Positions 40,469 through 60,544 of a stretch of DNA of 64,000 bases are shown piece by piece (positions within the stretch are counted from its first letter, which is position 1; each line of letters opens with the position of its first letter). The notes under the pieces were generated by a model. It ran no database searches. It was not told where the DNA came from and worked only from the letters and a program-made list of their open reading frames with translations. Origin of the DNA: Candidatus Levyibacteriota bacterium (GTDB lineage: Bacteria; Patescibacteriota; Microgenomatia; Levybacterales; UBA12049); the NCBI GenBank assembly GCA_963716145.1, contig OY970292.1, positions 822,528-886,527 on the forward strand. The letters are read 5' to 3'. The translations under genes and the position numbers were made by a program.

Positions 40469-40471
40469 AAT

Positions 40472-43761: not shown

Positions 43762-43779
43762 GAAAGATTTTTGAAACTT

Positions 43780-44970
43780 CTAGTGCCCCGGCTTAATTGA
43801 CATTGCAGCCCCAATAACTAAAGCCCCGGCAAGAGCTGCAAGAAGCGCGGCAAGGCCCAAAGGTGCACCTCCGACGATAGCACTGCCTTTGAGAGCCTTG
43901 AGAGTATTTGTTTTCCATCTTGCTCTTTCTTCAGCATCCATGCCTTTAGTCTGTTCCTCAAGCATTTTGTCAACAATACCGCTTAGATCGCCTTTACGGA
44001 CTGATTCCAATAAGGCTTGGGCTGCTTCTGAGTCAAACTCACCGTTTTGTATTTGGTCAAATAAGCCATCAAAAGGTGTTTCTCCTTTTGCTTCAGCTTC
44101 AGAAAATAGCTTATAGGCATTGCCCAAAACTGCTTGCTCAGCTTGTGCTGCTTCCAGCCTTTGTTGAGCTGTAGCATTATTGTTATCAATCTTTAATGTT
44201 GCTTCTAGATTCGCGATCTCGGCACTAAGCTTATCGGATTGTTGAGCAAACGCTTCTTTACTTCCGCCGAGAACCGTTACTGCTTCCTGAAAATCATCTT
44301 TTGTCAGGACAACTTTTCCATCCAAGTTTTCTAACAATTTTGTTGCTTGAGGTGAACGGGTTGTTTCGTCAGGAGAGATGGAGCTTATAAGAGATCTGAT
44401 ATCATCAGCTGTGGGGATGCGGTTCTTGGCAGCATTTTCTATCGCCGGATCAAGACTTTCATCCATATCCCGATTGCCCATACAAGCTTGGAATACCTGC
44501 TGACTGTCTTCGCCTACAAAAAGTTTTGCATATGTATTCAGCTCTGCCTGCATTTGAAGACCAAGGACCTCTTCTCTAGTATAGGCAAGTTTTAGGCGTG
44601 CATCGCCTTGTTCATCTTTACCTGCGCTATCCTCAAGCACCTCTCCATCCTTATCTTCAAAGTAACATAGCAGTTGACCATCAGGTGTAACACCTGCAAT
44701 ACCAGCTAAGCGGATTTCTCCTTCCGGAAATTCCTGGTCTTTGCCACCCCTATCTTGTCTTATGACTGCCGGCATCATTACGTCATGTCCATCGCCGGTT
44801 GCTTTGGGAAATTTTCTTGCAAATGGCTGATCGCCGTCATTCTCACCAGTAAGCAATGCGTGAGATATGGCAAGCGCAGATTCCTCAGCAGTTTTTGCGG
44901 ATTTAATCTCCCCTTTATCACCGATTAGCCTTTTGCGGTGTTCTGACATAAGAATCGACTTAACCAACAT
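43780..44970 (-). CDS. hypothetical tail-anchored protein (acidic, Ala/Glu/Gln-rich coiled-coil, C-terminal TM); may extend upstream to 45262 across poly-T/A indels
   Basis: 396 aa; C-terminus GSAIVGGAPLGLAALLAALAGALVIGAAMSI; upstream ORF 45056..45262 (MSAPGTAATETPGMNADELAAAKSFDAKKKGPKLKKKEKAKRKK) in another frame through T9/T10 runs; G+C visibly higher than flanks. Confidence 0.5.
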   Translation of the reverse strand: MLVKSILMSEHRKRLIGDKGEIKSAKTAEESALAISHALLTGENDGDQPFARKFPKATGDGHDVMMPAVIRQDRGGKDQEFPEGEIRLAGIAGVTPDGQLLCYFEDKDGEVLEDSAGKDEQGDARLKLAYTREEVLGLQMQAELNTYAKLFVGEDSQQVFQACMGNRDMDESLDPAIENAAKNRIPTADDIRSLISSISPDETTRSPQATKLLENLDGKVVLTKDDFQEAVTVLGGSKEAFAQQSDKLSAEIANLEATLKIDNNNATAQQRLEAAQAEQAVLGNAYKLFSEAEAKGETPFDGLFDQIQNGEFDSEAAQALLESVRKGDLSGIVDKMLEEQTKGMDAEERARWKTNTLKALKGSAIVGGAPLGLAALLAALAGALVIGAAMSIKPGH

Positions 44971-45316
44971 GGCTGCTTCTGTACCTCTTCTTTCAGCTGT
45001 CCTAGGAGTTCTTTCAGCTGTCTCCTCTTCTGTATCGCTGTAGCCTGCGCCTCTGTCAAGGTAGCAGCGGTTGCTGGATCTGGGGAGGGGGCATCTGCAG
45101 GTCTGCTAGCATCACTCCTAGTAGGTGGCCCTTTTTTCTTTTCGCCTTTTCCTTTTTTTTCAGTTTTGGGCCTTTTTTTTTGGCATCAAAGCTTTTGGCT
45201 GCAGCCAATTCGTCTGCGTTCATACCGGGTGTTTCTGTTGCTGCTGTTCCTGGTGCTGACATATTACTACTATCATAGTTGAAACTTTACCACCGATCAA
45301 GTATGATTTTAAGTAT

Positions 45317-48300
45317 ATGCTTGCAATGGAAAGCGGAGATAGTGGTGGCGGAAAATTGGGGCGGGCCACCGAACGGGCCAAAACTGCCATCAAATCAAAG
45401 TTTAGTAATAAATCTGATGCAGCTCCAAGTGATGCTCCAAAGCACCCGGCTCTTAATACAATTAAAGAGAGAATATCTCCTTTTTTACTCAGGGAGCAAA
45501 CAGGAACAGGTGAAACAACTCTTGATTGGCAGGGACGGGAAGTGCAAATTAAAGAGCGGACCGGCTCTATTGATCCCGAATTGGTCACTGATTTTTCTAA
45601 AAGCCTGAAAGGCGACCTGGAAAGATTGATGGATATTCAGCAAAATACACCGGACGTCTTTGATAGATTGATTAACGACCCGCATTTTCGCCCGTATAGA
45701 GATCTTTTTGATAAATATACAAGGCTTAAAGAAGGCTCAGCTGCGGTAGGCGGGCACGCGATCAGGGAATTTGATTCAACATCGTTTGATGACTACATGG
45801 GGACTGATGCTGGATTCGCGACTGCTTTTGAAATGCGGAAATTAAAACTTCAGGATATGGCAACCAACGCCGCGGTGTTTCTTGATGACAATCTTCCCAC
45901 GACAAATCCTGAGGAAATTGAAGAACAGGATGTCAATACAGGACCGGGAGGTAAGGCTAGGGAAATAGGTAGAAAGGTTGGGCATTTTTTTCAAGAACCG
46001 CGTACCAGATACGGACGAAAAATACCTATAGATTTGGGTATTACGACTCTGGACTCAAAAGGAGATATAGCAGCGGTCATAACTGCTGCAAGTACTTTCC
46101 TTGGGGGGTTGGGAGCACTGGGTGGCGGTCCCGTAGGAGGATTGATTGGAGCTGGTATTCCACCGGCTGTTGTGGGGGTAATACACGCCTTTCATAGGGG
46201 GGAGAGGGTTACTGTTGAGCAAGCAAGAGCCGCTTTACGTATTGCCCGAGCAACGGATCCTGTAAGACGGGAATGGGCCCGTGAGATGTATAACGTAGAC
46301 TCAAGCAATCTTGGAATTGATAACAACGGAAATGTAGTTATACGCCCAGGTATCAGAAATAACAGGCAGCTTGCCAGTCCGGCAAAACAGAGTGAGGTTT
46401 TGCGCGATATTTTGGTTCGGGAAAATGCACAAATCATGAAAGCTCAGGAAGCGATGGGTATACGCCGGGAACAACGCGGTGGAATGGATTTGGTGGGATT
46501 GACTCGCCCCGGGCGGAATGAGCAATTTGCCCAACGCGATATACCTATTGAGATAAGTGTACAGCGCGAATTTAAGCGGGACCCTAGGTTAGTTGATAGA
46601 AATGGTAACACCTGCCAATTTCAAAATGCACAAGGTGAGTGGGTGGATAACGCCAATTTTAATTGGCGGAATACAAACCGATTAGCAGCATGGGATCTGC
46701 GTCAAGAAATTCACAGAAGGCTCCTTTCAGAAAAGATAACAGGAGACTTTAATGATATTGCTGAATGGGGCAAAAATCACAATACGGATTTAGGCAGCGC
46801 AATCACAAAAGCAAAAGAGCGCGGACCATTGATACTTACGGAAAGAAAAGCGGCATTAAATGAGCAAGACCGGAATCTTACCGAGGATCAGCGTCGCTTA
46901 AGAGCAGAAATTCCGCCTTTTACAGAGCTGGATACTGTCTTAACTCAAGTAGCTGCTGCCAGAAGAGCTGCTGAACAGGCAAGGAGAAATGTTACACGGG
47001 TAACCGCTCACCCAACTGGATTAACTGATGAATTATCGCTTTTAACTCAAGTATTAAATGATGTTCCAGCAGGCGGAGCTGCTCCGTTTGAACTGGATGT
47101 TATGCATGAGGGGGTTCGCCTACGCATTACCAGTATTGCCGGAAGAGAAGCTGAAGCATTGAGGACTTACCAGAACGCAGTTAATACAATTTCCGGATCT
47201 GTGCCTACAGGAAAAGGAGCTGACCAAATTATCACTGCAAGACTAAAAATTGCTAAGGATATTTACGATCAGCAGATGATTCCAATTAATAGAGACAAAA
47301 CAGCTGTCACCGCAGCCCGGCAGGCCATAGATGCTGCAAATACCGCAGCGCGTGAAGTATTTAATAGGTTTAATACTCTTGATGCGCAAAGAGAAGCTAC
47401 AGCAACTACATCAACAGAGATGCAGACCGCAAGAACAACTATCGAAGGATGGACCACTCCCGGAGTTGCTGATTTAAGTACAGCAGAGTTACAAAATCAA
47501 TCTTTCGATGAGCTCTTGACCCGCATAAATGCGGTAAATGCAGGGGGTGGGGGTGGCTGGCCGGAAGCTGAGAATGATACTCCTGAGAACAGAGAACGTC
47601 TGGTACGTGCGATGGCTGAAGCAAGAGCTATAGCATTAGAGCCACGCGTGGCGACACCAAGCGCCAATTTCGAGGATGCGATTAATCCCAATGGTTTTGC
47701 ATTGCTCGAAACAGATTTGTTGACAAGATCATCTGAGGATATAAGAAATATAATGGCTGATTTGATTGCAAGGGCTCCAGCTGGATCACCTCTTAACGGT
47801 TTGGTCATTCCTGCGAATGCAATAGATCAAATAAATGAGATCAAAAATGAAGCACAAGCCCGCTTTACAGCCCGCTTAAGAGCCATGCAGGCACTTGACA
47901 GAGAGATTACCAGCAGAAAAACGATAATCGAAGGCCAGAAAACGCGTATTGATAGAGAGGGTATTCAAACTCCCGAACTTGATGCTATAGAGAGAGCATA
48001 TCCGCTGGTAGATGATATCAGGAGCACTATTGATGCTATGACTGTTGTACCGCGGCTTGTTGAGTTCCTTGATACAGCGCAGGCAGCCACCCAAGCCCGT
48101 TATTTACCTGAGGAGCAAGCAAATAACCATTCAATAGCCTATGCCAATATAATGGAGTTGATTTTTAATCACCGCGATGATAATGATGCGAAGGTCGGTA
48201 CAGTAACCGGTAGGGCAGTTGCTTTTGAAAGAAACAGTAATTTCCTGACAGAAGATGTGCTCCGAGATCTGCTGGTACAGCAGTTTAATTTAGTAGGTCC

Positions 48301-48472
48301 TCCTCTTCCAGCTGGAGTCGTTGGTCCGCCAGCCACTCCGACATTTGAGCAGGCAATAGATCAATTGCGTAACGAAATCCAAGCCGGAAACATACCAAAA
48401 GGGCAGTTCGCGCAATTCCTGACAGAAAACGTCATATATGGATATATGGAACCGCTTGTACCGGTGTTATAA
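45317..48472 (+). CDS. giant hypothetical protein (1051 aa), Ala/Arg/Gly/Thr-rich, mostly helical with one Gly-rich hydrophobic segment
   Basis: no recognisable catalytic motif; GLGALGGGPVGGLIGAGIPPAVVGVIHAF at about 270-300; codon and amino-acid usage unlike host genes (sampled G+C about 50-58 percent). Confidence 0.6.
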   Translation: MLAMESGDSGGGKLGRATERAKTAIKSKFSNKSDAAPSDAPKHPALNTIKERISPFLLREQTGTGETTLDWQGREVQIKERTGSIDPELVTDFSKSLKGDLERLMDIQQNTPDVFDRLINDPHFRPYRDLFDKYTRLKEGSAAVGGHAIREFDSTSFDDYMGTDAGFATAFEMRKLKLQDMATNAAVFLDDNLPTTNPEEIEEQDVNTGPGGKAREIGRKVGHFFQEPRTRYGRKIPIDLGITTLDSKGDIAAVITAASTFLGGLGALGGGPVGGLIGAGIPPAVVGVIHAFHRGERVTVEQARAALRIARATDPVRREWAREMYNVDSSNLGIDNNGNVVIRPGIRNNRQLASPAKQSEVLRDILVRENAQIMKAQEAMGIRREQRGGMDLVGLTRPGRNEQFAQRDIPIEISVQREFKRDPRLVDRNGNTCQFQNAQGEWVDNANFNWRNTNRLAAWDLRQEIHRRLLSEKITGDFNDIAEWGKNHNTDLGSAITKAKERGPLILTERKAALNEQDRNLTEDQRRLRAEIPPFTELDTVLTQVAAARRAAEQARRNVTRVTAHPTGLTDELSLLTQVLNDVPAGGAAPFELDVMHEGVRLRITSIAGREAEALRTYQNAVNTISGSVPTGKGADQIITARLKIAKDIYDQQMIPINRDKTAVTAARQAIDAANTAAREVFNRFNTLDAQREATATTSTEMQTARTTIEGWTTPGVADLSTAELQNQSFDELLTRINAVNAGGGGGWPEAENDTPENRERLVRAMAEARAIALEPRVATPSANFEDAINPNGFALLETDLLTRSSEDIRNIMADLIARAPAGSPLNGLVIPANAIDQINEIKNEAQARFTARLRAMQALDREITSRKTIIEGQKTRIDREGIQTPELDAIERAYPLVDDIRSTIDAMTVVPRLVEFLDTAQAATQARYLPEEQANNHSIAYANIMELIFNHRDDNDAKVGTVTGRAVAFERNSNFLTEDVLRDLLVQQFNLVGPPLPAGVVGPPATPTFEQAIDQLRNEIQAGNIPKGQFAQFLTENVIYGYMEPLVPVL

Positions 48473-48478
48473 TAAATT

Positions 48479-48832
48479 ATGAACGCATTAGATATTATCA
48501 AGGCATTACCAATCGATGAGGTAGTAAAGACCAAAATCTTGAATAATTATGATTCTTTTACTGTGGCTCAGAAATCCGCAACCGATCATCTAGCATGGAC
48601 CACCTATGACGCTTTATATGAGGAGAGGCTTAGGAAAAATTTGGGAGTCCAGTATGATAACGTAGAACAAGGAGGAGAGAAATTTGGCAACGACTTTTAT
48701 AAAAGAGCACTTAAAAAAACGGAACGTGAAATGACAACTGAATTTAAGGAATCTGTTTCCAAGCATGATCTTTCTGCTGCGAGGAAGGCAATGGAAATAA
48801 TTGTTCGGGAAATTCAAGTCGCAAAAAAATAA
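48479..48832 (+). CDS. hypothetical protein (117 aa), operon partner of the giant protein
   Basis: starts 7 nt after the stop of 45317..48472. Confidence 0.4.
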   Translation: MNALDIIKALPIDEVVKTKILNNYDSFTVAQKSATDHLAWTTYDALYEERLRKNLGVQYDNVEQGGEKFGNDFYKRALKKTEREMTTEFKESVSKHDLSAARKAMEIIVREIQVAKK

Positions 48833-48850
48833 TTGGTTAGCTTATTTCTG

Positions 48851-49618
48851 CTACTGGTCCTCAATTCTTCCAATCTCTCTTACTTCTCTGATAGTTTCCT
48901 CGGGCTTGAGTTTGGTTGTATCGATGTTCTCACCTCTATAGAGGAGTAACATACCTTCAATGATTTCCTTGGCCTTTAGGGCATCAGCACGCCAGAGATG
49001 AGATACAAAGACCTTTTTAACCTTGAGCGGATGCGGTCCGTAATCAATGATCAGCTTTGCCATAAAAAGTGCTGTGTGAACCCGCACATCCATAATCTCT
49101 TTAAGCATAATGCTTGTCATGGCTTCCGTAGCAAAGAAACTCTTCAGGGTTATATCCACTTTGTTGGCGTCAATTGTCACGGTGTCGGGGAAAAAGTCAA
49201 AAGGAAAAACAGTTTTGGCTCTGAAAAGTATTTTATCAGCCCGCGATACGAGTATATCGAGCTCTTTTTTAGCTTGCTGTGAATCATCAGTTTCATTGGG
49301 TTCATTTTGTTGGTCACTTTCAGATTTACCGCTATCAGCTTTCTTCTGCTTTTTCTTTGATCCGCCGTCCATACCGCTTCTTTCAGAAGGTGTCATATAG
49401 GGATCTTCAGCTAGCATCTCGGCTCTTTTTGCAAGAGTCTCATCGCTTCGTTTCTCTTTGTAGCCTTTTTTAGTACCATTACCAGATTTTTTATCGGGAG
49501 GGCTGGGAGATTTTCTCCGAGCAGGTTGTTGTCGGCGTTTTGCGCCGTTTTGAAAAATTGGTGCTGCTGCCTCATCAAAAAGTATATTATTATCATTCAT
49601 GACTCCTAAGTATAGCAA
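48851..49618 (-). CDS. hypothetical protein with basic disordered N-terminus and conserved-looking C-terminal domain
   Basis: 255 aa; Lys/Ser-rich N-terminal 120 aa. Confidence 0.45.
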   Translation of the reverse strand: MLYLGVMNDNNILFDEAAAPIFQNGAKRRQQPARRKSPSPPDKKSGNGTKKGYKEKRSDETLAKRAEMLAEDPYMTPSERSGMDGGSKKKQKKADSGKSESDQQNEPNETDDSQQAKKELDILVSRADKILFRAKTVFPFDFFPDTVTIDANKVDITLKSFFATEAMTSIMLKEIMDVRVHTALFMAKLIIDYGPHPLKVKKVFVSHLWRADALKAKEIIEGMLLLYRGENIDTTKLKPEETIREVREIGRIEDQ

Positions 49619-49699
49619 TTTGAAGCAAAGAATTGAATAGAGATCGGTAAGAGAACTATAAGATAAAAGTTAGTTTCCTTCGACAGGCTCAGGACTTAG

Positions 49700-50524
49700 C
49701 TAATTTAAAATATAAAGATCCTGGTTATATCCGCCAACTGCCACAAATTCCGCTTCATGAGTGATAATGGCCTCAAAGGGAAGGCAGGCAAAGCAGCCGC
49801 CCTTTGGACAGATGTATTCTCCAGCAAGCCTTGCCTGTTTTACTCTTAAGGCAGTTTCCAGGACTGTTTGAAAAGCAAGATCTTTATCAGGTAGTTTCAT
49901 CTCAGTGGGTGTATCATCCCGGTCCAAATACCAATAGCTGGCTTTACTGACCAATCTGCTCTGGCAATTTTCAACCAGAAGTAAATAAATAGGAAGTTGG
50001 AGGGAATTGACCTTTTCATCATTTTTACCTGTTTTGAAATCGATTATGTGAAGAGTATTATCAGGCATATACTCAAGCCAGTCAATCTTACCGCAAAGTA
50101 TTATATTATCCGCTACAGATAAATAATAATTTGGCAGTTCTTTATTGATTTTAATAGCTTTTTGAATTAGTGGGCCAGGGTTATCAATAACCCGCTTTAA
50201 CATTTGTACGCCCCGTTCTTTTATTGCATGCTCTTCCTCTTTGTTCTTAAAACCTCCAAGTTTGCCGGTTACTTTTTCCCAAGATAAGTTATATTTATCA
50301 ACAAGCGGCTCTTTAAAGCGGTCCTCAACCCGTAGAGTAGATAATGCTTCAAGCACAACGTGCACTGTTTGTCCAAGAGCAAGCGAGGGATTTATGATAT
50401 TCACTTTGTGTCCCGTTTGCGGGTCTTTGTAAACATTTCTAAGGTAATAAAGCCTCGGACAAGAAAGAAAATCACTGATGGATGAGTTAGATACCCAGAC
50501 CGCGCTATATTTATCTTGGGGCAT
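49700..50524 (-). CDS. Cas4/RecB-like PD-(D/E)xK nuclease with Cys4 Fe-S motif (stand-alone)
   Basis: 274 aa; GKIDWLEY...HIIDFKTGK (D...D/ExK); one N-terminal Cys (DFLSCPRLYY) plus CPKGGCFAC at the C-terminus, as in Cas4/AddB Fe-S nucleases. Confidence 0.6.
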   Translation of the reverse strand: MPQDKYSAVWVSNSSISDFLSCPRLYYLRNVYKDPQTGHKVNIINPSLALGQTVHVVLEALSTLRVEDRFKEPLVDKYNLSWEKVTGKLGGFKNKEEEHAIKERGVQMLKRVIDNPGPLIQKAIKINKELPNYYLSVADNIILCGKIDWLEYMPDNTLHIIDFKTGKNDEKVNSLQLPIYLLLVENCQSRLVSKASYWYLDRDDTPTEMKLPDKDLAFQTVLETALRVKQARLAGEYICPKGGCFACLPFEAIITHEAEFVAVGGYNQDLYILN

Positions 50525-50535
50525 AAAAGCGGGGT

Positions 50536-50982
50536 TTAACTGCCAAAAGTAGGTATTTTTAGGCTACGAATATCCCCTAGGCCAAATGCGCTTAGGACAA
50601 TTTGTACTATGAAGTAAGCAACAAAGGCGACAATGAGACCCACAATGGCTGCAACGATATGCTTTCTCGCTTCATCAACTTTTCCTTTGTCTCCACCGGA
50701 GGTTATCCATCTGATTCCACCATAAACTAGGTAAAAAAGAGCGATGATAACTGCCGCGATCAGAAGAAATGTTAATACAGTGCCTATGATGCCACCTGCT
50801 TTATCTGCTTTGAAGTTGTCGCAGAGTTTGAAAAAAGTTGAACTCCGAGGGCAGGGATCAAGATCTGTCTCTGCAAACGCAGGAAGAGCTGAGTAGGCGA
50901 AAGCACTAAGTCCTAATAATATTGCTGAAACCTTTTTCATAAGTACATATCTATGATAGAACAATGTTTTTCTGCTTGTCAA
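50536..50982 (-). CDS. VirB2/TrbC-like two-TM pilin-like protein (paralog 2)
   Basis: 148 aa; signal-like N-terminus; YGGIRWITSGGDKGKVDEARKHIVAAIVGLIVAFVAYFIV. Confidence 0.45.
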   Translation of the reverse strand: MTSRKTLFYHRYVLMKKVSAILLGLSAFAYSALPAFAETDLDPCPRSSTFFKLCDNFKADKAGGIIGTVLTFLLIAAVIIALFYLVYGGIRWITSGGDKGKVDEARKHIVAAIVGLIVAFVAYFIVQIVLSAFGLGDIRSLKIPTFGS

Positions 50983-50997: not shown

Positions 50998-51321
50998 TTA
51001 AGCAAAATTTAGAAGGTTTACCTTGAAGAAATAGCCAATAAGGCTAACAATGAAAAACGCAGCAAACGCGACAACAAGCCCAATTATTGCCCAGGTCAAT
51101 TTTGCACGAGCTGCTTGAAGCTTTGTTTTATCTCCGCCTGATAGAATCCATTGTATGCCGGCAACTACTATAAATATAAGCGCCAAAGCTACGCAGATTA
51201 TGATCATGATGATAAAGCTATTGCGGAAAACCTTACTTACTGTACCAATGCCTCCGGTTGGGATACCAGGAGGGGCAGAGATTGTTTGTCCGCCGGGAAG
51301 AGTTAATGCCAAATAGTTCAT
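50998..51321 (-). CDS. VirB2/TrbC-like two-TM pilin-like protein (paralog 3)
   Basis: 107 aa; AGIQWILSGGDKTKLQAARAKLTWAIIGLVVAFAAFFIV. Confidence 0.45.
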   Translation of the reverse strand: MNYLALTLPGGQTISAPPGIPTGGIGTVSKVFRNSFIIMIIICVALALIFIVVAGIQWILSGGDKTKLQAARAKLTWAIIGLVVAFAAFFIVSLIGYFFKVNLLNFA

Positions 51322-51495: not shown

Positions 51496-52929
51496 GTGGA
51501 GCAAGTTCATTTTGAATCGCTTTATCCTGATACAGCCTGGTCCTCAGAAATTGAAAAACTGGGAAGTTTTATAAAAGACGGTACATCCTGTCAATTATTG
51601 AGTATACCTGGTGCCGGAAGATCAACTATTTTGGGTCTTTTGGCGCATAACAGCAAAATACGTATAAAGCATTTCGGTAAGAATCAGGCTGCAATCCATT
51701 TTGTAGCTGTTAATTTTTCAGAGATTAAAAAACGTCCGCTTTTTGACGTGATGAAGTTTTTGTTTCTGTCTCTTGCCGACTCTCTTCGGGCGCGCAAAAT
51801 GGAGGAATATGAGAAGATTAATGATCTGTTCAAAGAATCTTTGGGATTTAATGATGAGCTTGTGCTTTTTCAGGCTCTAAAAGAAGCTATTGATTATCTT
51901 GCTCTTGAAAGAAAATTTAAGATTGTTTTTTTGTTTGATCGATTTGAGGAATATGTGCCCAAAGTAACCAGCGAGTTTTTTACCAATCTCAGAACTCTTA
52001 GGAATCGTGCCAAATATCAATTTTCAGTGATTTTTTCTCTCAACAGACCGCTTGAGGAGCTCTTGGAACAGGATCAGCTTTTCGACTTTTATGAATTTAT
52101 CGCAGGACATTACGTTTACTCAGGCCTATCTGATAAAGTCACAACAGATTTCCGCGTTGCATATATAGAAAAAATTACAGGAAAAAAAATTCTGCCAAAA
52201 ATACTTACCGGTATTCTAGAAGAGACAGGGGGAGTGGGAAGACTTATCAAGTTATCAGTTGAGACAGTCCTGGCGAATAATAAATTCGAAGCACGAAGCA
52301 CGAAATCCGAGACAAATATAAATAACAAAAATCCAAATACGAAAAATGTTTCGAGTTTCGACCTGCCTGCCGGCAAGGCAGGTATTCGGATTTCGGATTT
52401 GGGTTTGGGGGAATATCTTTTTTCACAAAAACCAATCCAAAGTGCTCTAATGGAGATTTGCCGCTCGCTTTTACCAGTTGAGCAGGCGGCACTTATTAAT
52501 AACAAATTTGATGACCCGCAAGCAGAAAGTTATCTTGAGACTGTTGCAATAATTAAAGCTAGGAAAATACAAATTCCTCTTTTTGAGAAACATATTAAAT
52601 CGCACGTTGGGAAATTTCAGCAAGATGCCAAAAAAATTGTATATGATCAAAACACAAACGCTATAAAAATGAACGAGGTTGTCTTATCTGATCAGCTGAC
52701 TTCGTCTGAGTTTAGACTGCTGAAATTTCTTCTGCAAAATCCTGACAGAATTGTTGATAGAGACGCGCTGATTGGCGTTGTATGGTCAAGCGTAAAATCA
52801 ACCGCCGGTATAACCGATCAGGCAGTTGACCAACTGGTTTTTAGAGTAAGACGGAAAATAGAAGACGACCCTAATAATCCCGTTCACCTGCTTACTGTTA
52901 AAGGGCGGGGATTTCGATTCGTTTCCTAA
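51496..52929 (+). CDS. regulator: N-terminal P-loop-like ATPase (Walker A Lys replaced by Arg) fused to C-terminal OmpR/PhoB-type winged-helix DNA-binding domain
   Basis: 477 aa; LSIPGAGRSTILGLL; IVFLFDRFEE (Walker B-like); C-terminal ...LTSSEFRLLKFLLQNPDRIVDRDALIGVVW...DQLVFRVRRKIEDDP...LLTVKGRGFRFVS matches the trans_reg_C pattern. Confidence 0.6.
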   Translation: MEQVHFESLYPDTAWSSEIEKLGSFIKDGTSCQLLSIPGAGRSTILGLLAHNSKIRIKHFGKNQAAIHFVAVNFSEIKKRPLFDVMKFLFLSLADSLRARKMEEYEKINDLFKESLGFNDELVLFQALKEAIDYLALERKFKIVFLFDRFEEYVPKVTSEFFTNLRTLRNRAKYQFSVIFSLNRPLEELLEQDQLFDFYEFIAGHYVYSGLSDKVTTDFRVAYIEKITGKKILPKILTGILEETGGVGRLIKLSVETVLANNKFEARSTKSETNINNKNPNTKNVSSFDLPAGKAGIRISDLGLGEYLFSQKPIQSALMEICRSLLPVEQAALINNKFDDPQAESYLETVAIIKARKIQIPLFEKHIKSHVGKFQQDAKKIVYDQNTNAIKMNEVVLSDQLTSSEFRLLKFLLQNPDRIVDRDALIGVVWSSVKSTAGITDQAVDQLVFRVRRKIEDDPNNPVHLLTVKGRGFRFVS

Positions 52930-52994: not shown

Positions 52995-55900
52995 ATGATA
53001 GAGCAAAAATTGACAGCCAGAGAGGCTTCCCGATATGATAGAAGAGGAGCAAAATATATGTCAGAAACAGGAGCAGCCGTATTGGAAAGATCGGAAGAAT
53101 CAGATGAAGAAAAACTGTATAAAAAATGGGAGCCTTTTTTGGCGCAAGCTACCAAGCCCGAAGAACGCGCCCACATACTTGATCTTATAACTCAACGTAG
53201 AGAACCACCCTCAGAAGATCCAAGTGAATTAACGCAGGCCAGATTGAGAGAAATGTCCCAGGATGAGGTTGATAAGAAATTTGCCGCCATGATCAAAAAG
53301 CCTGAGATTAACAGGCCTGAAGATTTAAAGGGGCTTGACAAGATACTGGATAAGTACCAGGAGCAGGCAAAGGGCGCAGACGGTCTATTGGGAGATGAGT
53401 CGGTAGCACCAGGGGAAGTCTTGCGGGATAAGGACAGCTGGGCAGAGTATGGATGGAGCGATACTGAGAAAATCAGAGTTGCTGGTGACCTAAAGACCAC
53501 CCTTGCGAGCTTAAAGCTTACCGATAAACAGGTAGATACTATGATGGAAATTTTTCTTTCCGAAGGTAAATTGCCTGAACATTTAACAAAAGGAAAAATA
53601 GAAGAGATATCAGCCAACATATGGGATGAATGGGAGAAAGACCCAAATATCAGACATGATTATAAAAATGAATTCGATATATTTGTAATGCAGAAGTTGG
53701 GAATTACGGAAAAGCAAATAAAGCATTTTATTTTGACTGATAAATTTGAACAGGATAATGATATGTATGTTGATTATAATTCTCCACGAAATATTGAGGC
53801 CCTTGCCTGGCAGATCATGCACACCCCCGGTAAAGGATACGCAGGGTGGGGTATTAAGGGCGAGCGTCCGCTTCTTGAGATGCGGATAGTAAAGAATGCT
53901 GATGGAACTGTTGACACAGACAAGAGCCGTTACCGTGTAAATACAGCAAATATGGTTGCTTGGGCACGTTACAGCATGTATACCGCCTATGATCTTGACC
54001 GTGAAACTCCTCACAATTTTTTTCAGGAAATTGCTTTAAAGAAAAGATACCCGCTTTCTCTTCAAGAGATGCTTCTTAATCCTGATCAGTATTTTGTTTC
54101 GGAAGACGGAGAGACAAAATATAAACAAATGCTGCTGGAGTGGTATAAGGAAGCGGCTGTTTTTACAACTGTCAGGGGCTGGGATGTTGCTTACCGTGGA
54201 GTAATAGGAGATAGCGAGGAGCTGATGAAGGTTTTTAGGGAAATGTATAACACCCAAAATTTACTGACCAGAGGAGCTCTTGGTTCCAACATACTTAATC
54301 TTATGACAACTATGCCATTGGATTTTCAGGGGACAAAAGACGGTCAATGGAATAGCGATAGTAAGATGGGGGCCGGTTGGATTGATATCTATAGAGCTTA
54401 CGACAGCATGACTGATTTTGATAACCTGCAAAAGATACTTGGCAAGGGCTCAAAATTTTTTACCCGCGCAGGTTTCTCGGAGGCGATAAAAGAAGTGGAA
54501 AAAGGCAAGATTACAGCAACAGGTATAACTAAGTCAAGAGTGTTTATGGGTCGTAAGGAGCTTGAGTTTTTTAAAAATGCATTTGATGACAAGGGGGAGA
54601 TTTCATCTGAGGCGAATAAGGTAAATTTTATAAAACTTATTAATATTTTCGGAACCAAGCAGCCTGGAGCCGGAGTTGAGTTTGCAGTGCGTTTTGCACT
54701 GCGCAATGCTATTGCTGAAAAATACGGGGAGGAAGTGTACGTTAAAAATGCAAAGGGTGAAATCATGAAGGATGAAAATGGAAAAAAGATAAAAACGCAT
54801 GCTTTTGTTACTACACAAGGGGAGAAAAAAGGCGACGAGATAGAAAACAGGATAGCAGATAATGAAAGTCTATATATAGCTGAGGCAATTGCCTGGTCGC
54901 TGGCCAGACCATTTGGCGCGGCCGCCAAAAATGATCCTGATTCCATAGCGCATGACTATATGGCCAAAATTTATAATACCCAGCTGCTGCGTGAGAAATA
55001 TCCTCATCGCGGAGACAAACTTGGTAATGAGCTGACAATGAATTTAATCAAGCGGACAGGTGTTGATATTCTTAACGCTGTAGTAACAGAAGCCCAGACA
55101 CCCGAGCTGGATTCAGAGGGAAAAGTAATTTATAAAACAAAAGACGATAGGGCAAACAACCGCCCGGTAATGCGTGACAAAACTCCAATGGAACTCTTTG
55201 TTGAGCTGTCTGAGTTCAGGACAATAGCAGCTAGTGAGATACGGTTAATGAGAGATAAGCTTATGGGAATGACCAGGGGAACAGAGGAATGGAAAAGGCA
55301 AAAGGATTTGGTAGATGCCTACGAACAGCAATCAGAGCAAAAATACCAGAATATAGCTTCCCAAATATCTATCAGACAAAGAGTGCTTTCGAACTATTAT
55401 GAAGATCATTTGAGGTATGCCTCTGACATATTTAAGCAGGTTATGAACGCGGATGAAATAGGATTTGATAAATTCACCGATTACAATGTCTTCGGAGGTG
55501 TGCGGTTCAAGCAGGCGGAATTTCAGAAAGAGGTGCAGGATACCTGGATTCATAAGATCCGTTACATGCTCGATACTTATTCGAGTCTTAACTTTAATCA
55601 GACTGTGCGTGTTTTGGATCAGAAAGAGACATCAAGACGGCATTGGGACGATCATCGTGAGTCTGAACCTGCTTTTCATGATGTTCCGCTGGGTGAGGCG
55701 CTTTTCGGGCACGAAATGCTCAATATACCAAAATTCTGGAAAAGAGACGATAAAGGGAGGCCGATAAATTTGAGAGATAATAAAGGCCGGAAGATGAAGG
55801 GACTCTACGAAATTGATTATTTGAAAGTACAGGAGAACAAACAGGATGTCTGGAAGCAATGGTTTATGATCAAAGTTGCCGCGGATTTACGCTCGCACAA

Positions 55901-56210
55901 AATGCTACACGGTAATGATGTCAGATATAATTTCACATATTATCAAAATGTTATTGAGTCACTGGGAAGAATACCGGGGAATATTTTGCAGGATGAATAT
56001 AAGATGAAGGATACAGTAGTAAACGAGCGTTTTTTCACAAAAGCCAATATTGCATGGCTGCGTGAAAAAGCAGGCGTAACGAATTTTAACCTTTATATGG
56101 GAGCAATACTTAAAGATCTGATTTTGGAAGAGGATAAGCCTGAGGAGGGAATAGGACTGCTTCTTGCCTTAAGTCTCGCGATGAAAGCAATTGTACGGGA
56201 TAAAGTTTAG
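52995..56210 (+). CDS. giant hypothetical soluble protein (1071 aa), Lys/Glu/Asp/Trp/Tyr-rich
   Basis: single uninterrupted ORF, no signal peptide or TM, no recognisable motif. Confidence 0.6.
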   Translation: MIEQKLTAREASRYDRRGAKYMSETGAAVLERSEESDEEKLYKKWEPFLAQATKPEERAHILDLITQRREPPSEDPSELTQARLREMSQDEVDKKFAAMIKKPEINRPEDLKGLDKILDKYQEQAKGADGLLGDESVAPGEVLRDKDSWAEYGWSDTEKIRVAGDLKTTLASLKLTDKQVDTMMEIFLSEGKLPEHLTKGKIEEISANIWDEWEKDPNIRHDYKNEFDIFVMQKLGITEKQIKHFILTDKFEQDNDMYVDYNSPRNIEALAWQIMHTPGKGYAGWGIKGERPLLEMRIVKNADGTVDTDKSRYRVNTANMVAWARYSMYTAYDLDRETPHNFFQEIALKKRYPLSLQEMLLNPDQYFVSEDGETKYKQMLLEWYKEAAVFTTVRGWDVAYRGVIGDSEELMKVFREMYNTQNLLTRGALGSNILNLMTTMPLDFQGTKDGQWNSDSKMGAGWIDIYRAYDSMTDFDNLQKILGKGSKFFTRAGFSEAIKEVEKGKITATGITKSRVFMGRKELEFFKNAFDDKGEISSEANKVNFIKLINIFGTKQPGAGVEFAVRFALRNAIAEKYGEEVYVKNAKGEIMKDENGKKIKTHAFVTTQGEKKGDEIENRIADNESLYIAEAIAWSLARPFGAAAKNDPDSIAHDYMAKIYNTQLLREKYPHRGDKLGNELTMNLIKRTGVDILNAVVTEAQTPELDSEGKVIYKTKDDRANNRPVMRDKTPMELFVELSEFRTIAASEIRLMRDKLMGMTRGTEEWKRQKDLVDAYEQQSEQKYQNIASQISIRQRVLSNYYEDHLRYASDIFKQVMNADEIGFDKFTDYNVFGGVRFKQAEFQKEVQDTWIHKIRYMLDTYSSLNFNQTVRVLDQKETSRRHWDDHRESEPAFHDVPLGEALFGHEMLNIPKFWKRDDKGRPINLRDNKGRKMKGLYEIDYLKVQENKQDVWKQWFMIKVAADLRSHKMLHGNDVRYNFTYYQNVIESLGRIPGNILQDEYKMKDTVVNERFFTKANIAWLREKAGVTNFNLYMGAILKDLILEEDKPEEGIGLLLALSLAMKAIVRDKV

Positions 56211-56215: not shown

Positions 56216-58084
56216 CTATGATTTGGGTTTTGCGCCATTTTTATTTCTTCGTCTTTGCCTAAAGGGTACTCTTTCACCTCTTTCTTTCCGAATTGCTTCC
56301 CTTTCCGCCTCAATGGTTTTTTCGAATCCGCCCTCCCCATGTACTGTTCCTTGTCTCTCAATAAGTCTTCTTGATGCCAGACCTCTCTCAGCCATAGAAC
56401 CGAGAATAGGCACGCGGGATCCGGCTCCGATTATCTTTTCACCGGTTTTACGTTTCAAAACAGCAAGAGCTCCCTTGTCACCGCTTCTCGCGTCATATCT
56501 ATTTAGATGCTTCATTGCACGCCCCACCGGTGCGCCAACTACCGCAGCTCCAGCGGCAATTCCAGCTCCAACAATTCCCGGAGTGCCGATATTTTTGACA
56601 CCCATTTTCTCACGTAGAATGGTCTGGATAGTCGGGGCAATCAGAAGCACTCCAAATGCCATAAGCGCTCCGAAATTGGTGCTTGATGGATTTCCCACAA
56701 GGGGAGGTACGAATTGATTGGGAGATGCCGTACTATATATATCCAAAAGCAAACGCGCGGCAATTAAAAGAAACACTGTTAGAGGAAAAATGGCAATATT
56801 GACAAAAAGCCTTCTGATCCAGCTTTCAAAACCCATAGGTTTGGTTGGAAGCAGCCCAAAAACAATAATAATAGGCGCCAATATTACATAGGCCAGAGTA
56901 TAGATATATGCTTTAAGGAGATTAAACCAGATTTTGAATAGATTTATAACCAAAATTACGAAAATGATAATTTGCGCGACAGCGCTGACGAGAACAGCAA
57001 GGAAATTGGCAACGCCTTTTTTGGCGCATTTTATGGGATGATACCACTTGCATTTTGTTTCCAGATCATTTTCATCAAACATCAAACTTCTTGCTACATT
57101 GCCGATAGTGTTTCCCGCGCTGTCGGCAACTGATTTGGTCATGACATGAAATCCGCCGTCGCGATCATTACCTTCACCAATAGATAAAAATCCTGTTTCC
57201 TCGCTGCACCTGGCAAAAATTTGATTAAAATAAGTAATAGGAGTCTGAAGAATTGTGCTGGTTGCTTTTTCTGAAAGCTTTTCCGGCCCGGCAGTTTTAT
57301 CTGTACAGTTGCCTACATCCGGGTCATGAGTGGCAGTAAGTAAGTAGGATCCTGCATAAGTAGTCACCCACATCAGGTCAATAAGCATAGCCGAAATCGC
57401 GTAAGAGAGAGTAATAAGTATTATCGAAACTATTACTTTGGGAATTTGATTCTGAATAGTCATGACTGTCCTGGGGTCAATTTTTATCCTTAGCATGATA
57501 CCAACGCCAATAAATACAAACGCAAGAGTCAGAAGAACATAGGCGATATTGCGCACAGTTTCCCAGAGTCCGATAATCGGCTGGAGGCCGCACAATCCGT
57601 AGCCTGATTTAGCAGGATCACAAGGCGCTACCGCGGCATAAGCTTTGGGGACAATGCCGAATTTATCTGAGATATACCGCGTATACGTTCCTGTTGATGC
57701 AATCGGCTGATAGGTTGAGGTGATCAGACCGGTTGAAATACCCACAAGTCCCCCAATTTCCGGCTTGCCATACTCATCGAGTACAGGTTTACTCATCCCT
57801 AGTCTTTTGGTCTCAGGATTGATGCCAAGACAGCCTTGAGTCGGGTTGATCGGATCAACCCCGATTAGTAGACAATGTATAGCTGATAAAACTTCAATTG
57901 TTGTTGACTGGGCAAAAGTGTGTTGATTGAGGGGAACATCCGGATCCATATTTGGAGCCGCGAAAGAATTGGTTGTCGTAGTAGCCGAAGTGGGGGATAT
58001 TTGAGCAAATGAGGGCTTGGAAGCCATAAATAACAACCCAACAATAACAAATAACAAACAGAATAAAACGCGGACAGAGCGCAT
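56216..58084 (-). CDS. VirB6/TrbL-like polytopic membrane protein with signal peptide and long basic C-terminal tail
   Basis: 622 aa; MRSVRVLFCLLFVIVGLLFMASKPSFA signal; about 8 TM helices in the middle; hydrophilic Arg/Lys/Gly-rich C-terminal 110 aa. Confidence 0.4.
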   Translation of the reverse strand: MRSVRVLFCLLFVIVGLLFMASKPSFAQISPTSATTTTNSFAAPNMDPDVPLNQHTFAQSTTIEVLSAIHCLLIGVDPINPTQGCLGINPETKRLGMSKPVLDEYGKPEIGGLVGISTGLITSTYQPIASTGTYTRYISDKFGIVPKAYAAVAPCDPAKSGYGLCGLQPIIGLWETVRNIAYVLLTLAFVFIGVGIMLRIKIDPRTVMTIQNQIPKVIVSIILITLSYAISAMLIDLMWVTTYAGSYLLTATHDPDVGNCTDKTAGPEKLSEKATSTILQTPITYFNQIFARCSEETGFLSIGEGNDRDGGFHVMTKSVADSAGNTIGNVARSLMFDENDLETKCKWYHPIKCAKKGVANFLAVLVSAVAQIIIFVILVINLFKIWFNLLKAYIYTLAYVILAPIIIVFGLLPTKPMGFESWIRRLFVNIAIFPLTVFLLIAARLLLDIYSTASPNQFVPPLVGNPSSTNFGALMAFGVLLIAPTIQTILREKMGVKNIGTPGIVGAGIAAGAAVVGAPVGRAMKHLNRYDARSGDKGALAVLKRKTGEKIIGAGSRVPILGSMAERGLASRRLIERQGTVHGEGGFEKTIEAEREAIRKERGERVPFRQRRRNKNGAKPKS

Positions 58085-58150
58085 AGCTATTTTAGTTTGA
58101 GGTATTTTGAATGGGTTGTCAAGTTCTGCAAAGCAGAATTTTAAGCCTTG

Positions 58151-58235
58151 CGGAGAGGACGGGACTCGAACCCGTAATCCCGTTTCCGGGACACGCGCTT
58201 TCCAAGCGCGCCGACTACCATTATCACACCTCTCC
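58151..58235 (-). tRNA. tRNA-Ser (anticodon GGA), type II with long variable arm
   Basis: acceptor GGAGAGG/CCTCTCC, anticodon arm CGCGC-TTGGAAA-GCGCG, variable hairpin CCCGGAAACGGG, T-arm ACGGG-TTCGAGT-CCCGT, discriminator G. Confidence 0.85.
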
Positions 58236-58459
58236 TTTTTTTAATCTAAATTTCTTCTAAAATATTTTCTCCCACGCGCACTCTTGTCCGCCTCTGGCGG
58301 AAGACCACCCCGCCAAAGGCGGGCAGGTATGCGACCCTTCCATTTCAAAACTATTATATAAGGTAAATGTCAAGCGATTTAGCTCGAAATTTCCTATACT
58401 TGTCTGGTAATTATACCTGATTAGTTTCATATTTGCATAAAAGGGAGGGAGGATATAAA

Positions 58460-59314
58460 ATGACAGAGAACGATTATATTATGGACCCATTACCACCAGA
58501 TAGACCGGGATCTAGACCAGGAGATCCCCGAGCGCCACGTGAAGCCGGGCCTCCGATAGTACCTAGGCCTACCCAAGATCCGAAAGAGGCAGCAGATCAT
58601 CCTCTTGGTCCAGCTATTCCCTCACCGTCCAGAAAGGAAGGTGTAGGTGATGAAACCGTGGAGGCCTGGACAAAAGGCGCAACCTCGCGCAGCAGAATGA
58701 GTCCATCAGAAACTGTCGAGAAAGTATTGCCCGCACGTGGACTGGATTTGCCAACTGGCGAAAGAGGACAAGAAGATGCTGCCCGCGACTTGGAACTAAC
58801 GACGAGGGTAGTAAATGAAAACATTAGTATTCCTGAGATGGCTGCTATTGCTAATGAATTTGGAATTCCAAGGAATATGGTGTCGCACGAATTTGCGCAG
58901 ATGGGTGTTAAGCCGGAGAAAATCGAGGAACTTATGCAGCATCAGCATCTGCTGCTGCCCGAATTAACAGAGGCCGAAAAAGTAAACGTCTCTGATCCTG
59001 TCACCGAAGAGGTAATACAAGCCGGAAAGACAAACGCAGAAAAGGAATTGGAAGCTGGAATTTTTGAAGATGTAAAGAAAAGGTTTGAGACCGAAGCTGA
59101 ACCTCAGGAGGGTGACTTAGAAAAGATAGCCACAGTAAGAAAGGGATTTAATAAGTTTTTATTTGACGAGAATGAGGGTATTTTAAGAAGAGAGGGACGA
59201 AAAGCAAGACTTTTTGGAAAACCGCTGGTGGTTGGATTAATGGCCACATTTCTTGCCTATCTTTCGCTTTTGAGTCTTATGACAAAGTGGGCGGCCAAAA
59301 GAGTAGGAAGTTAG
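58460..59314 (+). CDS. hypothetical tail-anchored protein, Pro/Arg/Glu-rich N-terminus, C-terminal TM
   Basis: ATG 58460 after gggagggagg; C-terminus GKPLVVGLMATFLAYLSLLSLM; G+C higher than host. Confidence 0.45.
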   Translation: MTENDYIMDPLPPDRPGSRPGDPRAPREAGPPIVPRPTQDPKEAADHPLGPAIPSPSRKEGVGDETVEAWTKGATSRSRMSPSETVEKVLPARGLDLPTGERGQEDAARDLELTTRVVNENISIPEMAAIANEFGIPRNMVSHEFAQMGVKPEKIEELMQHQHLLLPELTEAEKVNVSDPVTEEVIQAGKTNAEKELEAGIFEDVKKRFETEAEPQEGDLEKIATVRKGFNKFLFDENEGILRREGRKARLFGKPLVVGLMATFLAYLSLLSLMTKWAAKRVGS

Positions 59315-59386
59315 TGTCCCCGGCGGGAATCGAACCCACAACTGAAGCTTCGGAAGCTCCTGTTTTATCCGTTAGACTACGAGGAC
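59315..59386 (-). tRNA. tRNA-Arg (anticodon CCG)
   Basis: acceptor GTCCTCG/CGGGGAC (one G-U), anticodon arm GGAGC-TTCCGAA-GCTTC, T-arm GTGGG-TTCGATT-CCCGC, discriminator A. Confidence 0.75.
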
Positions 59387-59503
59387 TCTTCTGCTCCGGC
59401 TGCGTAAATTGCTCTGCAACATTTTCAGGCGAAACGTAAGAAATTTCTCAAGAAATTTCAACGTTTCTGCAACGTTGAAATCGCAAAGCGATTTCTTACG
59501 TTG

Positions 59504-59587
59504 CGGAGGGTACAGGATTCGAACCTGTGTAGGGATTACTCCCTCGAGTTTTCGAAACTCGTGCAATTGCCACTATGCGAACCCTCC
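59504..59587 (-). tRNA. tRNA-Ser (anticodon CGA), type II
   Basis: acceptor GGAGGGT/ACCCTCC, anticodon arm CGAGT-TTCGAAA-ACTCG, variable hairpin AGGGAGTAATCCCT, T-arm ACAGG-TTCGAAT-CCTGT, discriminator G. Confidence 0.85.
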
Positions 59588-59692
59588 TTGTTCGCCAGTT
59601 GGCGAACACAATGAACTAAGAACAAAGAACTTAGAAAACTTTCTATTCTTGGTTTTAAGTTCTTAGTCCTTAGTATTCTGCTTTGCAGAATG

Positions 59693-59766
59693 TGTTCCCG
59701 AGTGGATTCGAACCACCGGCCTTAACGTCCGCAACGTTACGCTCTATCCAGCTGAGCTACGGGAAC
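59693..59766 (-). tRNA. tRNA-Arg (anticodon GCG)
   Basis: acceptor GTTCCCG/CGGGAAC perfect, D-arm GCTC-AGCTGGATA-GAGC, anticodon arm TAACG-TTGCGGA-CGTTA, T-loop TTCGAAT, discriminator A. Confidence 0.8.
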
Positions 59767-59816
59767 ATGTGTGTATTTTACCTAATATGGTCTAGGCTTG
59801 CAATTAAAATGAAATT

Positions 59817-60392
59817 TTACCGGCTTGTCTTTTCAAGAGGAAAGTTTTTTGAGAGCCAATCTCCTGATTTTTCCGTAAAAGTGGGCTTAACATATTCACG
59901 GTAAGGAAGGTACGGTAGAAGAATTGGTTTTATCTCCTCAGCCGTAATATCTCCAAGTGAAATCTTTAATTCTCCGGGAAAATAACTCTTGGTAGTCAAA
60001 TACAATACATCTTTATCATGATGTTTTATAAAGAAAAAATCATACAATTCTTCCCAGATAAAAAAATAATCTTCAACCCGTATGCCCTCCGTCGTAATTT
60101 TGTAGTAAAAATCATGAGGTGGGACAATTGATAAAGCAAACCACAGAAAAACCAATGAGAATATAGCACCCATTAAAAAAAAGTCTTTAGATGCAATATA
60201 AACTATGATTTCAAGTGCTGCCATTATCAGGAATCCGTTGAAAAAATACTCACGTGAGTGTTCTTTGAAAGGCCTACCGGGGGCGTGCCATTCTAAAAAA
60301 GTTCTGACATCATGTGTAAAGGCCGGGTTTTGTTCTCTTTCTTCTGGTTTTGGCTTATGTTTTGGGGTAGTCACACTTTTAATGTAACTCAT
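59817..60392 (-). CDS. membrane protein with two TM helices and a bacterial PH (bPH_2/DUF304)-like C-terminal domain
   Basis: start moved to ATG 60392 (MSYIKSV...) because the track ORF (to 60542) would overlap tRNA-Ser(TGA). Confidence 0.4.
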   Translation of the reverse strand: MSYIKSVTTPKHKPKPEEREQNPAFTHDVRTFLEWHAPGRPFKEHSREYFFNGFLIMAALEIIVYIASKDFFLMGAIFSLVFLWFALSIVPPHDFYYKITTEGIRVEDYFFIWEELYDFFFIKHHDKDVLYLTTKSYFPGELKISLGDITAEEIKPILLPYLPYREYVKPTFTEKSGDWLSKNFPLEKTSR

Positions 60393-60435
60393 TTTCAAGA
60401 CAAAAGTCAAGAAATTTGCTATACTTGAGCCTCCT

Positions 60436-60522
60436 GGAGAGGTCGCATAGTGGTCTAGTGCGGATGTCTTGAAAACATCTGTGGGCGCAAGTCTACCGCG
60501 AGTTCGAATCTCGCCCTCTCCG
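60436..60522 (+). tRNA. tRNA-Ser (anticodon TGA), type II
   Basis: acceptor GGAGAGG/CCTCTCC, anticodon arm GATGT-CTTGAAA-ACATC, long variable arm, T-arm GCGAG-TTCGAAT-CTCGC, discriminator G. Confidence 0.85.
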
Positions 60523-60544
60523 CAACGTAAGAAATCTACCAAAT

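Follow-up and report, generated by a model that had tools for sequence, protein, structure and literature searches.

A probable highly divergent 'extended' VirB6-class subunit of a chromosomal type IV secretion system in a Levybacteria-type genome

Does a polytopic membrane protein encoded far from the VirB4 gene of a Levybacteria-type genome represent the VirB6 subunit of its type IV secretion system (T4SS)? The question arises from a stretch of 64000 nucleotides of Candidatus Levyibacteriota bacterium (contig OY970292.1, positions 822528 to 886527, hereafter the window), in which an open reading frame (ORF) at 56216..58084 on the minus strand had been proposed, in a sequence-only reading, to encode a VirB6/TrbL-like membrane protein. 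The T4SSs of Patescibacteria are MPF_FATA-like, lack a relaxase and carry VirB2 arrays, and VirB6 is essential in Southlakia (PMC12102498, PMC10633639); few machines have been shown to be indispensable to Patescibacteria living as epibionts, and the T4SS is one of them (Wang et al. 2023). In the only phylum-wide survey, homologues of VirB6 were called 'scarce' among Microgenomatia, which was put down to 'extreme sequence divergence' (PMC12102498). The evidence presented here indicates that the product of the gene is most probably an enlarged ('extended') and highly divergent VirB6-class subunit of a chromosomal MPF_FATA-like T4SS/pilus system of the kind typical of Patescibacteria, in a Levybacteria-type genome of the Microgenomatia.

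Judged by its conservation, the ORF, which occupies exactly 56216..58084 and encodes 622 amino acids, is a real gene and not a chance reading frame: a word-indexed search returned 484 homologues, with an identical copy of the protein also present in the database, and an exhaustive profile search returned 4182 clusters (at 50% identity) at E<=1e-3 and 2337 at E<=1e-30. The homologues align with the protein from end to end (coverage 99-100%), and family members range from 402 to 1051 amino acids in length, with a highly variable tail. The named source genomes are nearly all Levybacteria/Levyibacteriota or 'Patescibacteria group' metagenome-assembled genomes, Levybacteria being members of the class Microgenomatia. 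An exact-sequence cluster look-up of the 622-amino-acid protein returned neither accession nor name, and promoter and terminator scans around the gene gave nothing better than shuffled sequence. For the analyses below we used an alignment of 40 full-length homologues (alignment A1; 32-76% identical to the 622-amino-acid protein, which forms the reference row) and a further set of 51 representatives with greater diversity, the two together making 91 proteins.

The architecture of the protein was examined by Kyte-Doolittle hydropathy, by conservation within the family alignment and with an AlphaFold2 (AF2) model. Amino acids 1-27 (58004..58084; this and the following segments all lie on the minus strand) resemble a signal peptide, with a hydropathy peak of 2.59 and an A-x-A-like 'SFAQ' at the C-terminal end, and M1 and A27 are conserved in almost all family members. 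The adjoining hydrophilic domain (amino acids 28-175, 57560..58003), which the signal peptide and conserved cysteine residues predict to be extracytoplasmic, contains the invariant columns Q59, C71, G75, C85, G112 and F142 and AF2-predicted helices at residues 54-74, 113-124 and 131-142. Hydrophobic helices 1 and 2 (amino acids 176-241, 57362..57559, by hydropathy) are linked by a sequence, M-L-R-x-K-I-D-P-R-T-V-M-T-I-Q-N-Q-I-P, that is better conserved than any other motif in the family, the same peptides being picked out as family signatures, and the invariant residues of this region are G193, M197, R199, D203, T206, M208, Q211, N212, Q213 and P215. A central hydrophilic loop or domain, delimited by hydropathy and the AF2 model (amino acids 242-355, 57020..57361), carries Cys260, Cys293, Cys345 and Cys353 and leads into hydrophobic helices 3-6 (amino acids 356-491, 56612..57019), the block with which homologues match the Pfam TrbL/VirB6 profile, where W386, P404, P413, G418, W422, P434, P460, P461 and P484 are invariant. 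The protein ends with a weaker Gly/Ala-rich hydrophobic segment (amino acids 499-522) and a partly helical tail (amino acids 523-622), both within 56219..56611 and defined by hydropathy and charge count. Of the nine cysteine residues in the protein, two (C71 and C85) are invariant across the family and a third (C345) is almost invariant; the signal peptide and the helix count would place the conserved ones in hydrophilic stretches outside the cell.

A signal peptide, about eight transmembrane (TM) helices and a long basic C-terminal tail had been put forward as typical of VirB6/TrbL. The signal peptide is evident from hydropathy, and the tail is indeed basic, the last 102 residues containing 27 Lys or Arg against 12 Asp or Glu. 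To arrive at eight TM helices, one has to include the signal peptide and the weak Gly/Ala-rich segment among the hydrophobic segments; the strong helices number six (amino acids ~180-200, 215-238, 360-382, 390-412, 425-448 and 470-490), and the long helices of the AF2 model span residues 168-197, 214-249, 350-401, 419-449 and 471-493. With six strong helices and one weak one beyond the signal peptide, the protein exceeds the five hydrophobic α-helices that we required of a polytopic protein, and its polytopic layout, with an extensive hydrophilic loop in the middle and a basic tail, agrees with what had been predicted for it. As a working hypothesis, the protein may adopt an N-out, C-in topology with seven TM helices.

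The ability of the family to be recognized as VirB6/TrbL was assessed with hidden Markov models (HMMs), and the outcome differed between the protein and its relatives. The 622-amino-acid protein itself matched nothing in Pfam and NCBIfam even at E<=1. Pfam TrbL/VirB6 (PF04610) was matched at E<0.01 by 17 of the 40 aligned homologues (best 4.1e-7) and by 10 of the 51 diverse representatives (best 1.9e-7), i.e. by 27 of the 91 proteins. The only other families found among the 91 were CYLD_phos_site and FA_desaturase, each in an isolated one-off match, so the TrbL/VirB6 signal is specific and not an artefact of hydrophobicity. The matches always fall on the helix 3-6 block (residues ~300-487 of the homologues, positions ~54-210 of the 215 in the profile), and among nine homologues inspected five reached the gathering score of 25.9 bits (25.9-30.4 bits) with the other four just below it. 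These data support the VirB6/TrbL membership of the family as a whole; the 622-amino-acid protein would then belong to it by transitivity, being 36-60% identical over its full length to matching members.

Several observations nevertheless weigh against the VirB6 assignment. In addition to the missing match for the protein itself, the Pfam matches of its relatives are marginal, scoring 24-30 bits where the gathering score is 25.9. Comparison by hhalign of the A1 family with the TrwI family (alignment A2, 24 sequences, the R388 sequence being taken from NC_028464) gave E 0.044 and a probability of 1.2% over 59 columns, which is not significant, although A2 is a shallow reference and a weak test because none of the TrwI homologues retrieved was less than 50% identical. 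Single TrwI or PrgH sequences performed worse than A2, with all of these comparisons lying at E 0.044-0.18 and a probability of about 1%. The AF2 model of the protein, built from the 40-sequence alignment, has a mean predicted local distance difference test score (pLDDT) of 75.7, and its top Foldseek matches are the R388 TrwJ/VirB5-TrwI/VirB6 stalk chains, with a probability of 0.84-0.87 and a non-significant E of ~0.1. A search of PDB sequences with the family profile returned low-complexity tail matches only, to Nop56 and Nop58 at E about 3, which we dismissed as compositional. The best 150 of all matches in the exhaustive representative search were close family members, with no bridge among them to VirB6 proteins from outside the Candidate Phyla Radiation. 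Homologues of VirB5, VirB8, VirB1 and the type IV coupling protein (T4CP) were not recognized in the window, nor was one of VirB10, and the composition of the machine is therefore incomplete. Finally, we infer the oligomeric state, the topology and the function of the protein alike, and the topology deduced from hydropathy may be wrong, since in R388 VirB6 just two N-proximal helices are truly in the membrane and most of the 'TM' helices are not.

The lack of a TrbL match for the protein, the marginal scores of its relatives, the hhalign result and the Foldseek E value could all be understood if the protein worked in the same cluster and machine and yet were not homologous to VirB6, sharing with it just a helical and hydrophobic character; it would then be a membrane scaffold or a platform for pilin assembly of unrelated origin. 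We consider this improbable, as the 27 matching members point to one Pfam family in one region with no competing family, and as the non-significant hhalign region superposes invariant residues of the two families, P404, F419 and W422 falling on P181, F196 and W199 of the TrwI family. In terms of fold, the protein was judged similar to the solved VirB6-class proteins TrwI and DotA, DotA being structurally the closest; TrwI and DotA are both placed in the VirB6 class by a recent nomenclature review (PMC12857230). A VirB6-class protein thus continues to be the reading that we prefer.

The gene order in related genomes argues for the same reading. We examined 80 species-representative loci (86 loci in all), scored by tblastn with a limit of 10 kb of flanking sequence. 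In most related Levybacteria genomes the genes form one contiguous cluster in the order VirB6-like, ~1000-amino-acid protein, OmpR-type regulator, two or three VirB2-like pilins, PrgI/VirB3-like, TrsD-like and VirB4, so that the co-occurrence with VirB4 expected of a VirB6 gene was indeed found. As an illustration, the ~12-kb locus P0043, whose VirB6-like protein is 38% identical to ours, encodes VirB6-like (+), a 983-amino-acid unknown protein (-), a Trans_reg_C regulator (-), three PF18895 pilins (+), PrgI fused to CarboxypepD_reg (+), a TraC-like protein (+) and VirB4 (+). A PF18895 pilin gene lies downstream on the same strand in 56 of the 58 species-level loci having at least 10 kb of downstream sequence, and a PrgI-like gene follows the pilins in 24 of the 30 loci with enough sequence beyond them. 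TrsD-like and VirB4 genes were found after these in 19 of the 80 species-representative loci and in 22 of the 86 loci in total; the flank limit accounts for at least some of the loci in which they were not seen. These counts make the VirB6-like gene a stable member of the VirB4 cluster.

The same data bear on the possibility that the protein is a transporter or permease unrelated to secretion, which has come to lie near the pilins by chance. Such a gene would hardly keep the head position of a T4SS cluster across dozens of species; moreover, no transporter or permease family was found in Pfam or NCBIfam for the 622-amino-acid protein or its 91 homologues, nor in the PDB search, and a signal peptide, Cys-rich extracytoplasmic domains and a disordered basic tail are atypical of permeases. 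Assignment to such a family had been named as the finding that would speak against VirB6/TrbL, and this explanation, which we regard as extremely improbable, is largely refuted. The VirB6/TrbL proposal is, in turn, supported by the TrbL matches of the family, the topology and the synteny.

In the window itself the cluster consists of one VirB6-like gene, one VirB4 gene, three pilin genes and four further genes, all nine being intact full-length ORFs. The VirB6-like gene ends 5 nt from the stop codon of a convergent gene (52995..56210, plus strand), which encodes a conserved protein of 1071 amino acids without a TM segment and without a match in Pfam, NCBIfam or PDB. A word-based search returned six homologues of this ~1000-amino-acid neighbour, and the AF2 model built from them is unusable (pLDDT 48.8); its gene adjoins the VirB6-like gene in 39 of the 86 related loci by tblastn and also in the relatives L001-L006, and the protein could be a lineage-specific T4SS component, regulator or substrate. 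Next comes a regulator with a C-terminal OmpR-type winged-helix DNA-binding domain (51496..52929, plus strand; Pfam Trans_reg_C 2.7e-17, with PDB matches to the DNA-binding domains of OmpR, PhoB and RegX3), which has no receiver domain and whose N-terminal region of ~370 amino acids has no assigned domain but contains a P-loop-like 'PGAGRST' motif. In 69 of the 86 loci a regulator of this type stands, on either strand, between the VirB6-like gene and the pilins.

All three VirB2-like pilins, which had been claimed for this stretch, match Pfam T4SS_pilin (PF18895) above its gathering score of 26.6 and lie on the minus strand: pilin 1 (50998..51321, 107 amino acids; 1.1e-8, 35.5 bits), pilin 2 (50536..50982, 148 amino acids; 8.5e-10), which is the last gene of the right-hand half-locus, and pilin 3 (4817..5143, 108 amino acids; 2.9e-8), the first gene of the left-hand half-locus. 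Their cores are 35-49% identical to one another, pilin 3 being 35% identical to the other two. The left-hand half continues, also on the minus strand, with a PrgI/VirB3-like membrane protein (3444..4757; Pfam PrgI 2.4e-6), which bears a C-terminal carboxypeptidase-regulatory-like (Ig-like) domain (CarboxypepD_reg 7.2e-9). At 437 amino acids this protein is unusually long, its PrgI domain with two TM helices (amino acids 40-76) being followed by a long Pro/Ser/Ala-rich and coiled linker and the Ig-like domain, and the fusion recurs in the relative L004; we know of no VirB3 homologue with a probable surface-exposed Ig-like domain. A small cytoplasmic TrsD/TraC-like protein (2763..3440, minus strand) resembles the N-terminal region of VirB4 and matches the N-terminal part of NCBIfam VirB4_plasma (6.2e-8) and TrsD (2.9e-4), both below the cut-offs, and its L004 orthologue carries PF26593 (TraC-like). 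The VirB4-like ATPase (561..2708, minus strand; Pfam P-loop_TraG 2e-25, AAA_10 1.5e-11, DUF87 1.5e-11) lies about 53.5 kb from the VirB6-like gene, in accord with the distance of about 53 kb first given. No window ORF of more than 400 amino acids matches a coupling-protein or relaxase family, in agreement with the Patescibacteria systems in the literature (PMC12102498, PMC10633639). Judged by gene content, a chromosomal VirB4, TrsD, PrgI/VirB3 and a PF18895 array with no relaxase or T4CP nearby amount to a Patescibacteria MPF_FATA-like T4SS.

On the other side of the VirB6-like gene lie five tRNA genes (58150..60523), for Ser(GGA), Arg(CCG), Ser(CGA), Arg(GCG) and Ser(TGA). The first of these, tRNA-Ser(GGA) at 58150..58235 (-), is just 65 nt upstream of the VirB6-like start codon, and tRNA-Ser(TGA) overlaps the 5' part of the ORF at 59817..60542, the true start of which is probably internal. 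Divergently oriented upstream of the VirB6-like gene, 58433..59314 (+) encodes a proline-rich, acidic protein of 293 amino acids with one C-terminal TM helix of the tail-anchored type and no family match. Proteins like it in size and position occur in L001 (268 amino acids) and L004 (329 amino acids), and sequence similarity is detectable in the closest relatives only.

The cluster of the window lies in two parts. Between pilin 3 and pilin 2 there are about 45.4 kb (5144..50535), and the order and strands of the cluster genes are otherwise those of the contiguous clusters. The interval contains DUF2298, four PMT_2-type glycosyltransferases, the ribosomal super-operon (EF-G, EF-Tu, L4, SecY, Map and RpoA) and several large unknown proteins, and its left and right junctions are tight, at 44 bp and 11 bp, respectively. 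On the right, a PD-(D/E)XK nuclease gene comes immediately after pilin 2, together with a homologue of a 255-amino-acid protein, an arrangement common to the closest relatives, L001 and L002 (60% identity) and L007 (49%), whereas in L008 and L009 (47-48% identity) the cluster is still contiguous. The two-locus layout is therefore a derived rearrangement of an ancestral single cluster, shared within the lineage and not a general feature, and a misassembly is unlikely. The suggestion that T4SS components are distributed over two loci flanking the ribosomal super-operon is thus accurate for this genome and has to be corrected for the family, the cluster being contiguous in most relatives.

Three unknown proteins are encoded near the right junction (43780..49618). 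The first (43780..44970, 396 amino acids) has a C-terminal TM helix, and the second (45317..48472, 1051 amino acids) has a Gly-rich hydrophobic stretch at amino acids 251-291 and no family; the third is the 255-amino-acid protein (48851..49618), a homologue of which also follows the PD-(D/E)XK gene in L001, L002 and L007. Within the interval, tuf (EF-Tu; ~24,880-26,090, plus strand) is read in at least four frame segments, equivalent to three frameshifts, the listed ORF at 25017..25760 reaching no further than the GTPase domain and a portion of domain 2. In an essential gene, the most likely cause is homopolymer indel errors in a long-read assembly, rather than a pseudogene, and as such errors are apparent in the assembly, individual ORF boundaries in the window should be taken with some caution.

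The split also invites the question of whether a true VirB6 homologue has here been uncoupled from the VirB4 half, with the right-hand half working separately or the system decaying. Apart from the split as such, this could be argued from the length of the protein, 622 amino acids against 755-820 in relatives 60% identical to it, and from the state of the assembly, in which essential genes such as tuf are broken, so that pseudogenization cannot be read from sequence alone. All nine cluster genes are nonetheless intact, the invariant residues of the family are all kept in the 622-amino-acid protein, and the split is common to L001, L002 and L007 (49-60% identical), where the genes have been kept, so it must be an old event that the lineage tolerates. 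In other bacteria, too, T4SS loci are commonly split. We therefore judge uncoupling or decay to be distinctly improbable and treat the two halves as encoding one machine with an extended VirB6-class subunit.

How such a subunit might work can be proposed by analogy with the structures of R388 TrwI/VirB6 and Legionella DotA, as summarized in PMC12857230. Several copies of the VirB6-like protein (a pentamer in the solved systems) would sit on the axis of the machine above the VirB4 ATPase. The first hydrophobic hairpin would anchor it in the membrane, and the later hydrophobic helices, together with the Cys-containing extracytoplasmic domains, would build a central stalk or protochannel outside the membrane. 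The VirB2-like pilins from the three genes would be extracted from the membrane and polymerized on this stalk, through which any substrate would pass. Two parts of the protein are predicted to lie in the cytoplasm, the invariant loop R-x-K-I-D-P-R-T-V-M-T-I-Q-N-Q-I-P and the basic tail, and these are the best candidates for contacts with PrgI/VirB3 and VirB4.

As the window lacks a coupling protein and a relaxase, the building of a pilus, or the transfer of protein or other cargo at the host-epibiont interface, is more likely here than DNA conjugation. A bolder proposal, which we regard as rather unlikely, is that the protein is a DotA-like 'all-in-one' stalk, in which disulfide-stabilized N-terminal and central extracytoplasmic domains would take over the role of VirB5 (stalk cap and pilus nucleation). 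Together with VirB3/PrgI-Ig, TrsD and VirB4 it would then constitute the minimal pilus-bearing T4SS of a monoderm epibiont, with the ~1000-amino-acid neighbour as a lineage-specific part or cargo.

The family is large and centred on Levybacteria, the TrbL HMM misses most of its members, and its gene consistently heads the T4SS cluster; these features make it the obvious candidate for the missing divergent VirB6 of Microgenomatia. It provides a profile and signature motifs (e.g. MLRxKIDPRTVMTIQNQIP) for the annotation of VirB6 in this class. A component-complete cluster split by 45 kb of core genes also matters for surveys restricted to ~20 genes around virB4. The machine, its VirB2 arrays and VirB6 homologues have been described already, and the overall picture of the machine is unchanged; what is new is a divergent family member that fills a gap.

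Among known systems, TrwI of R388 (PF04610, MPF_T type) is likewise polytopic and helical and is encoded together with VirB2-, VirB3- and VirB4-like genes; the TrbL profile fits the helix 3-6 block in many members of our family, and a P...F..W pattern is conserved in the same helix-loop region, albeit in a weak alignment. In contrast, TrwI has 342 amino acids against 622 here, about a twofold difference, and the VirB6-like protein has in addition a cleavable-looking signal peptide, an N-terminal Cys domain of ~150 amino acids, a central loop of ~115 and a basic tail of ~100. The sequence similarity of the 622-amino-acid protein to TrwI is under the detection threshold, the host envelope is of the monoderm type and no VirB5 partner was recognized in the window. 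DotA of the Legionella Dot/Icm T4BSS, a VirB6-class protein that forms the DotA-IcmX protochannel, differs in having 857 residues in the solved chain, in belonging to a diderm effector-translocating system and in its IcmX (VirB5-class) partner; it is only 10% identical to the VirB6-like protein, and no IcmX-like gene is present here. PrgH of pCF10 (MPF_FATA VirB6) belongs to the T4SS class nearest to Patescibacteria VirB4 and would be expected to play the same part there, but at 266 amino acids it differs in size and domain layout, and its hhalign comparison with the family (E 0.077, 31 columns) is not significant.

The extended VirB6 proteins of Rickettsiales, and the MPF_FA VirB6 proteins of 700-900 amino acids, share with the VirB6-like protein at least five hydrophobic helices and central and C-terminal hydrophilic or unstructured domains, the loop at amino acids 242-355 being comparable to their central hydrophilic domain (PMC12857230). 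By the review's definition (at least five hydrophobic helices and a large central or C-proximal hydrophilic domain) our protein fits the extended VirB6 class, this being a descriptive class and not a clade; its N-terminal signal peptide and Cys-rich domain fall outside that definition, and the likeness is one of description. The VirB6 homologues known from Patescibacteria T4SSs, such as the essential one of Ca. Southlakia epibionticum (Quinonero-Coronel et al. 2025, Wang et al. 2023), come from a chromosomal cluster of the same type as ours, with VirB4, TrsD, PrgI/VirB3, a divergent PF18895 pilin array and no relaxase. Patescibacteria VirB6 proteins were mostly retrieved with the MPF_T VirB6 profile and not with PrgH (PMC12102498), and the same is true of the family described here, which, compared with the scarce Microgenomatia VirB6 homologues of that survey, appears to be the Levybacteria/Microgenomatia version, one that mostly escapes standard HMMs.

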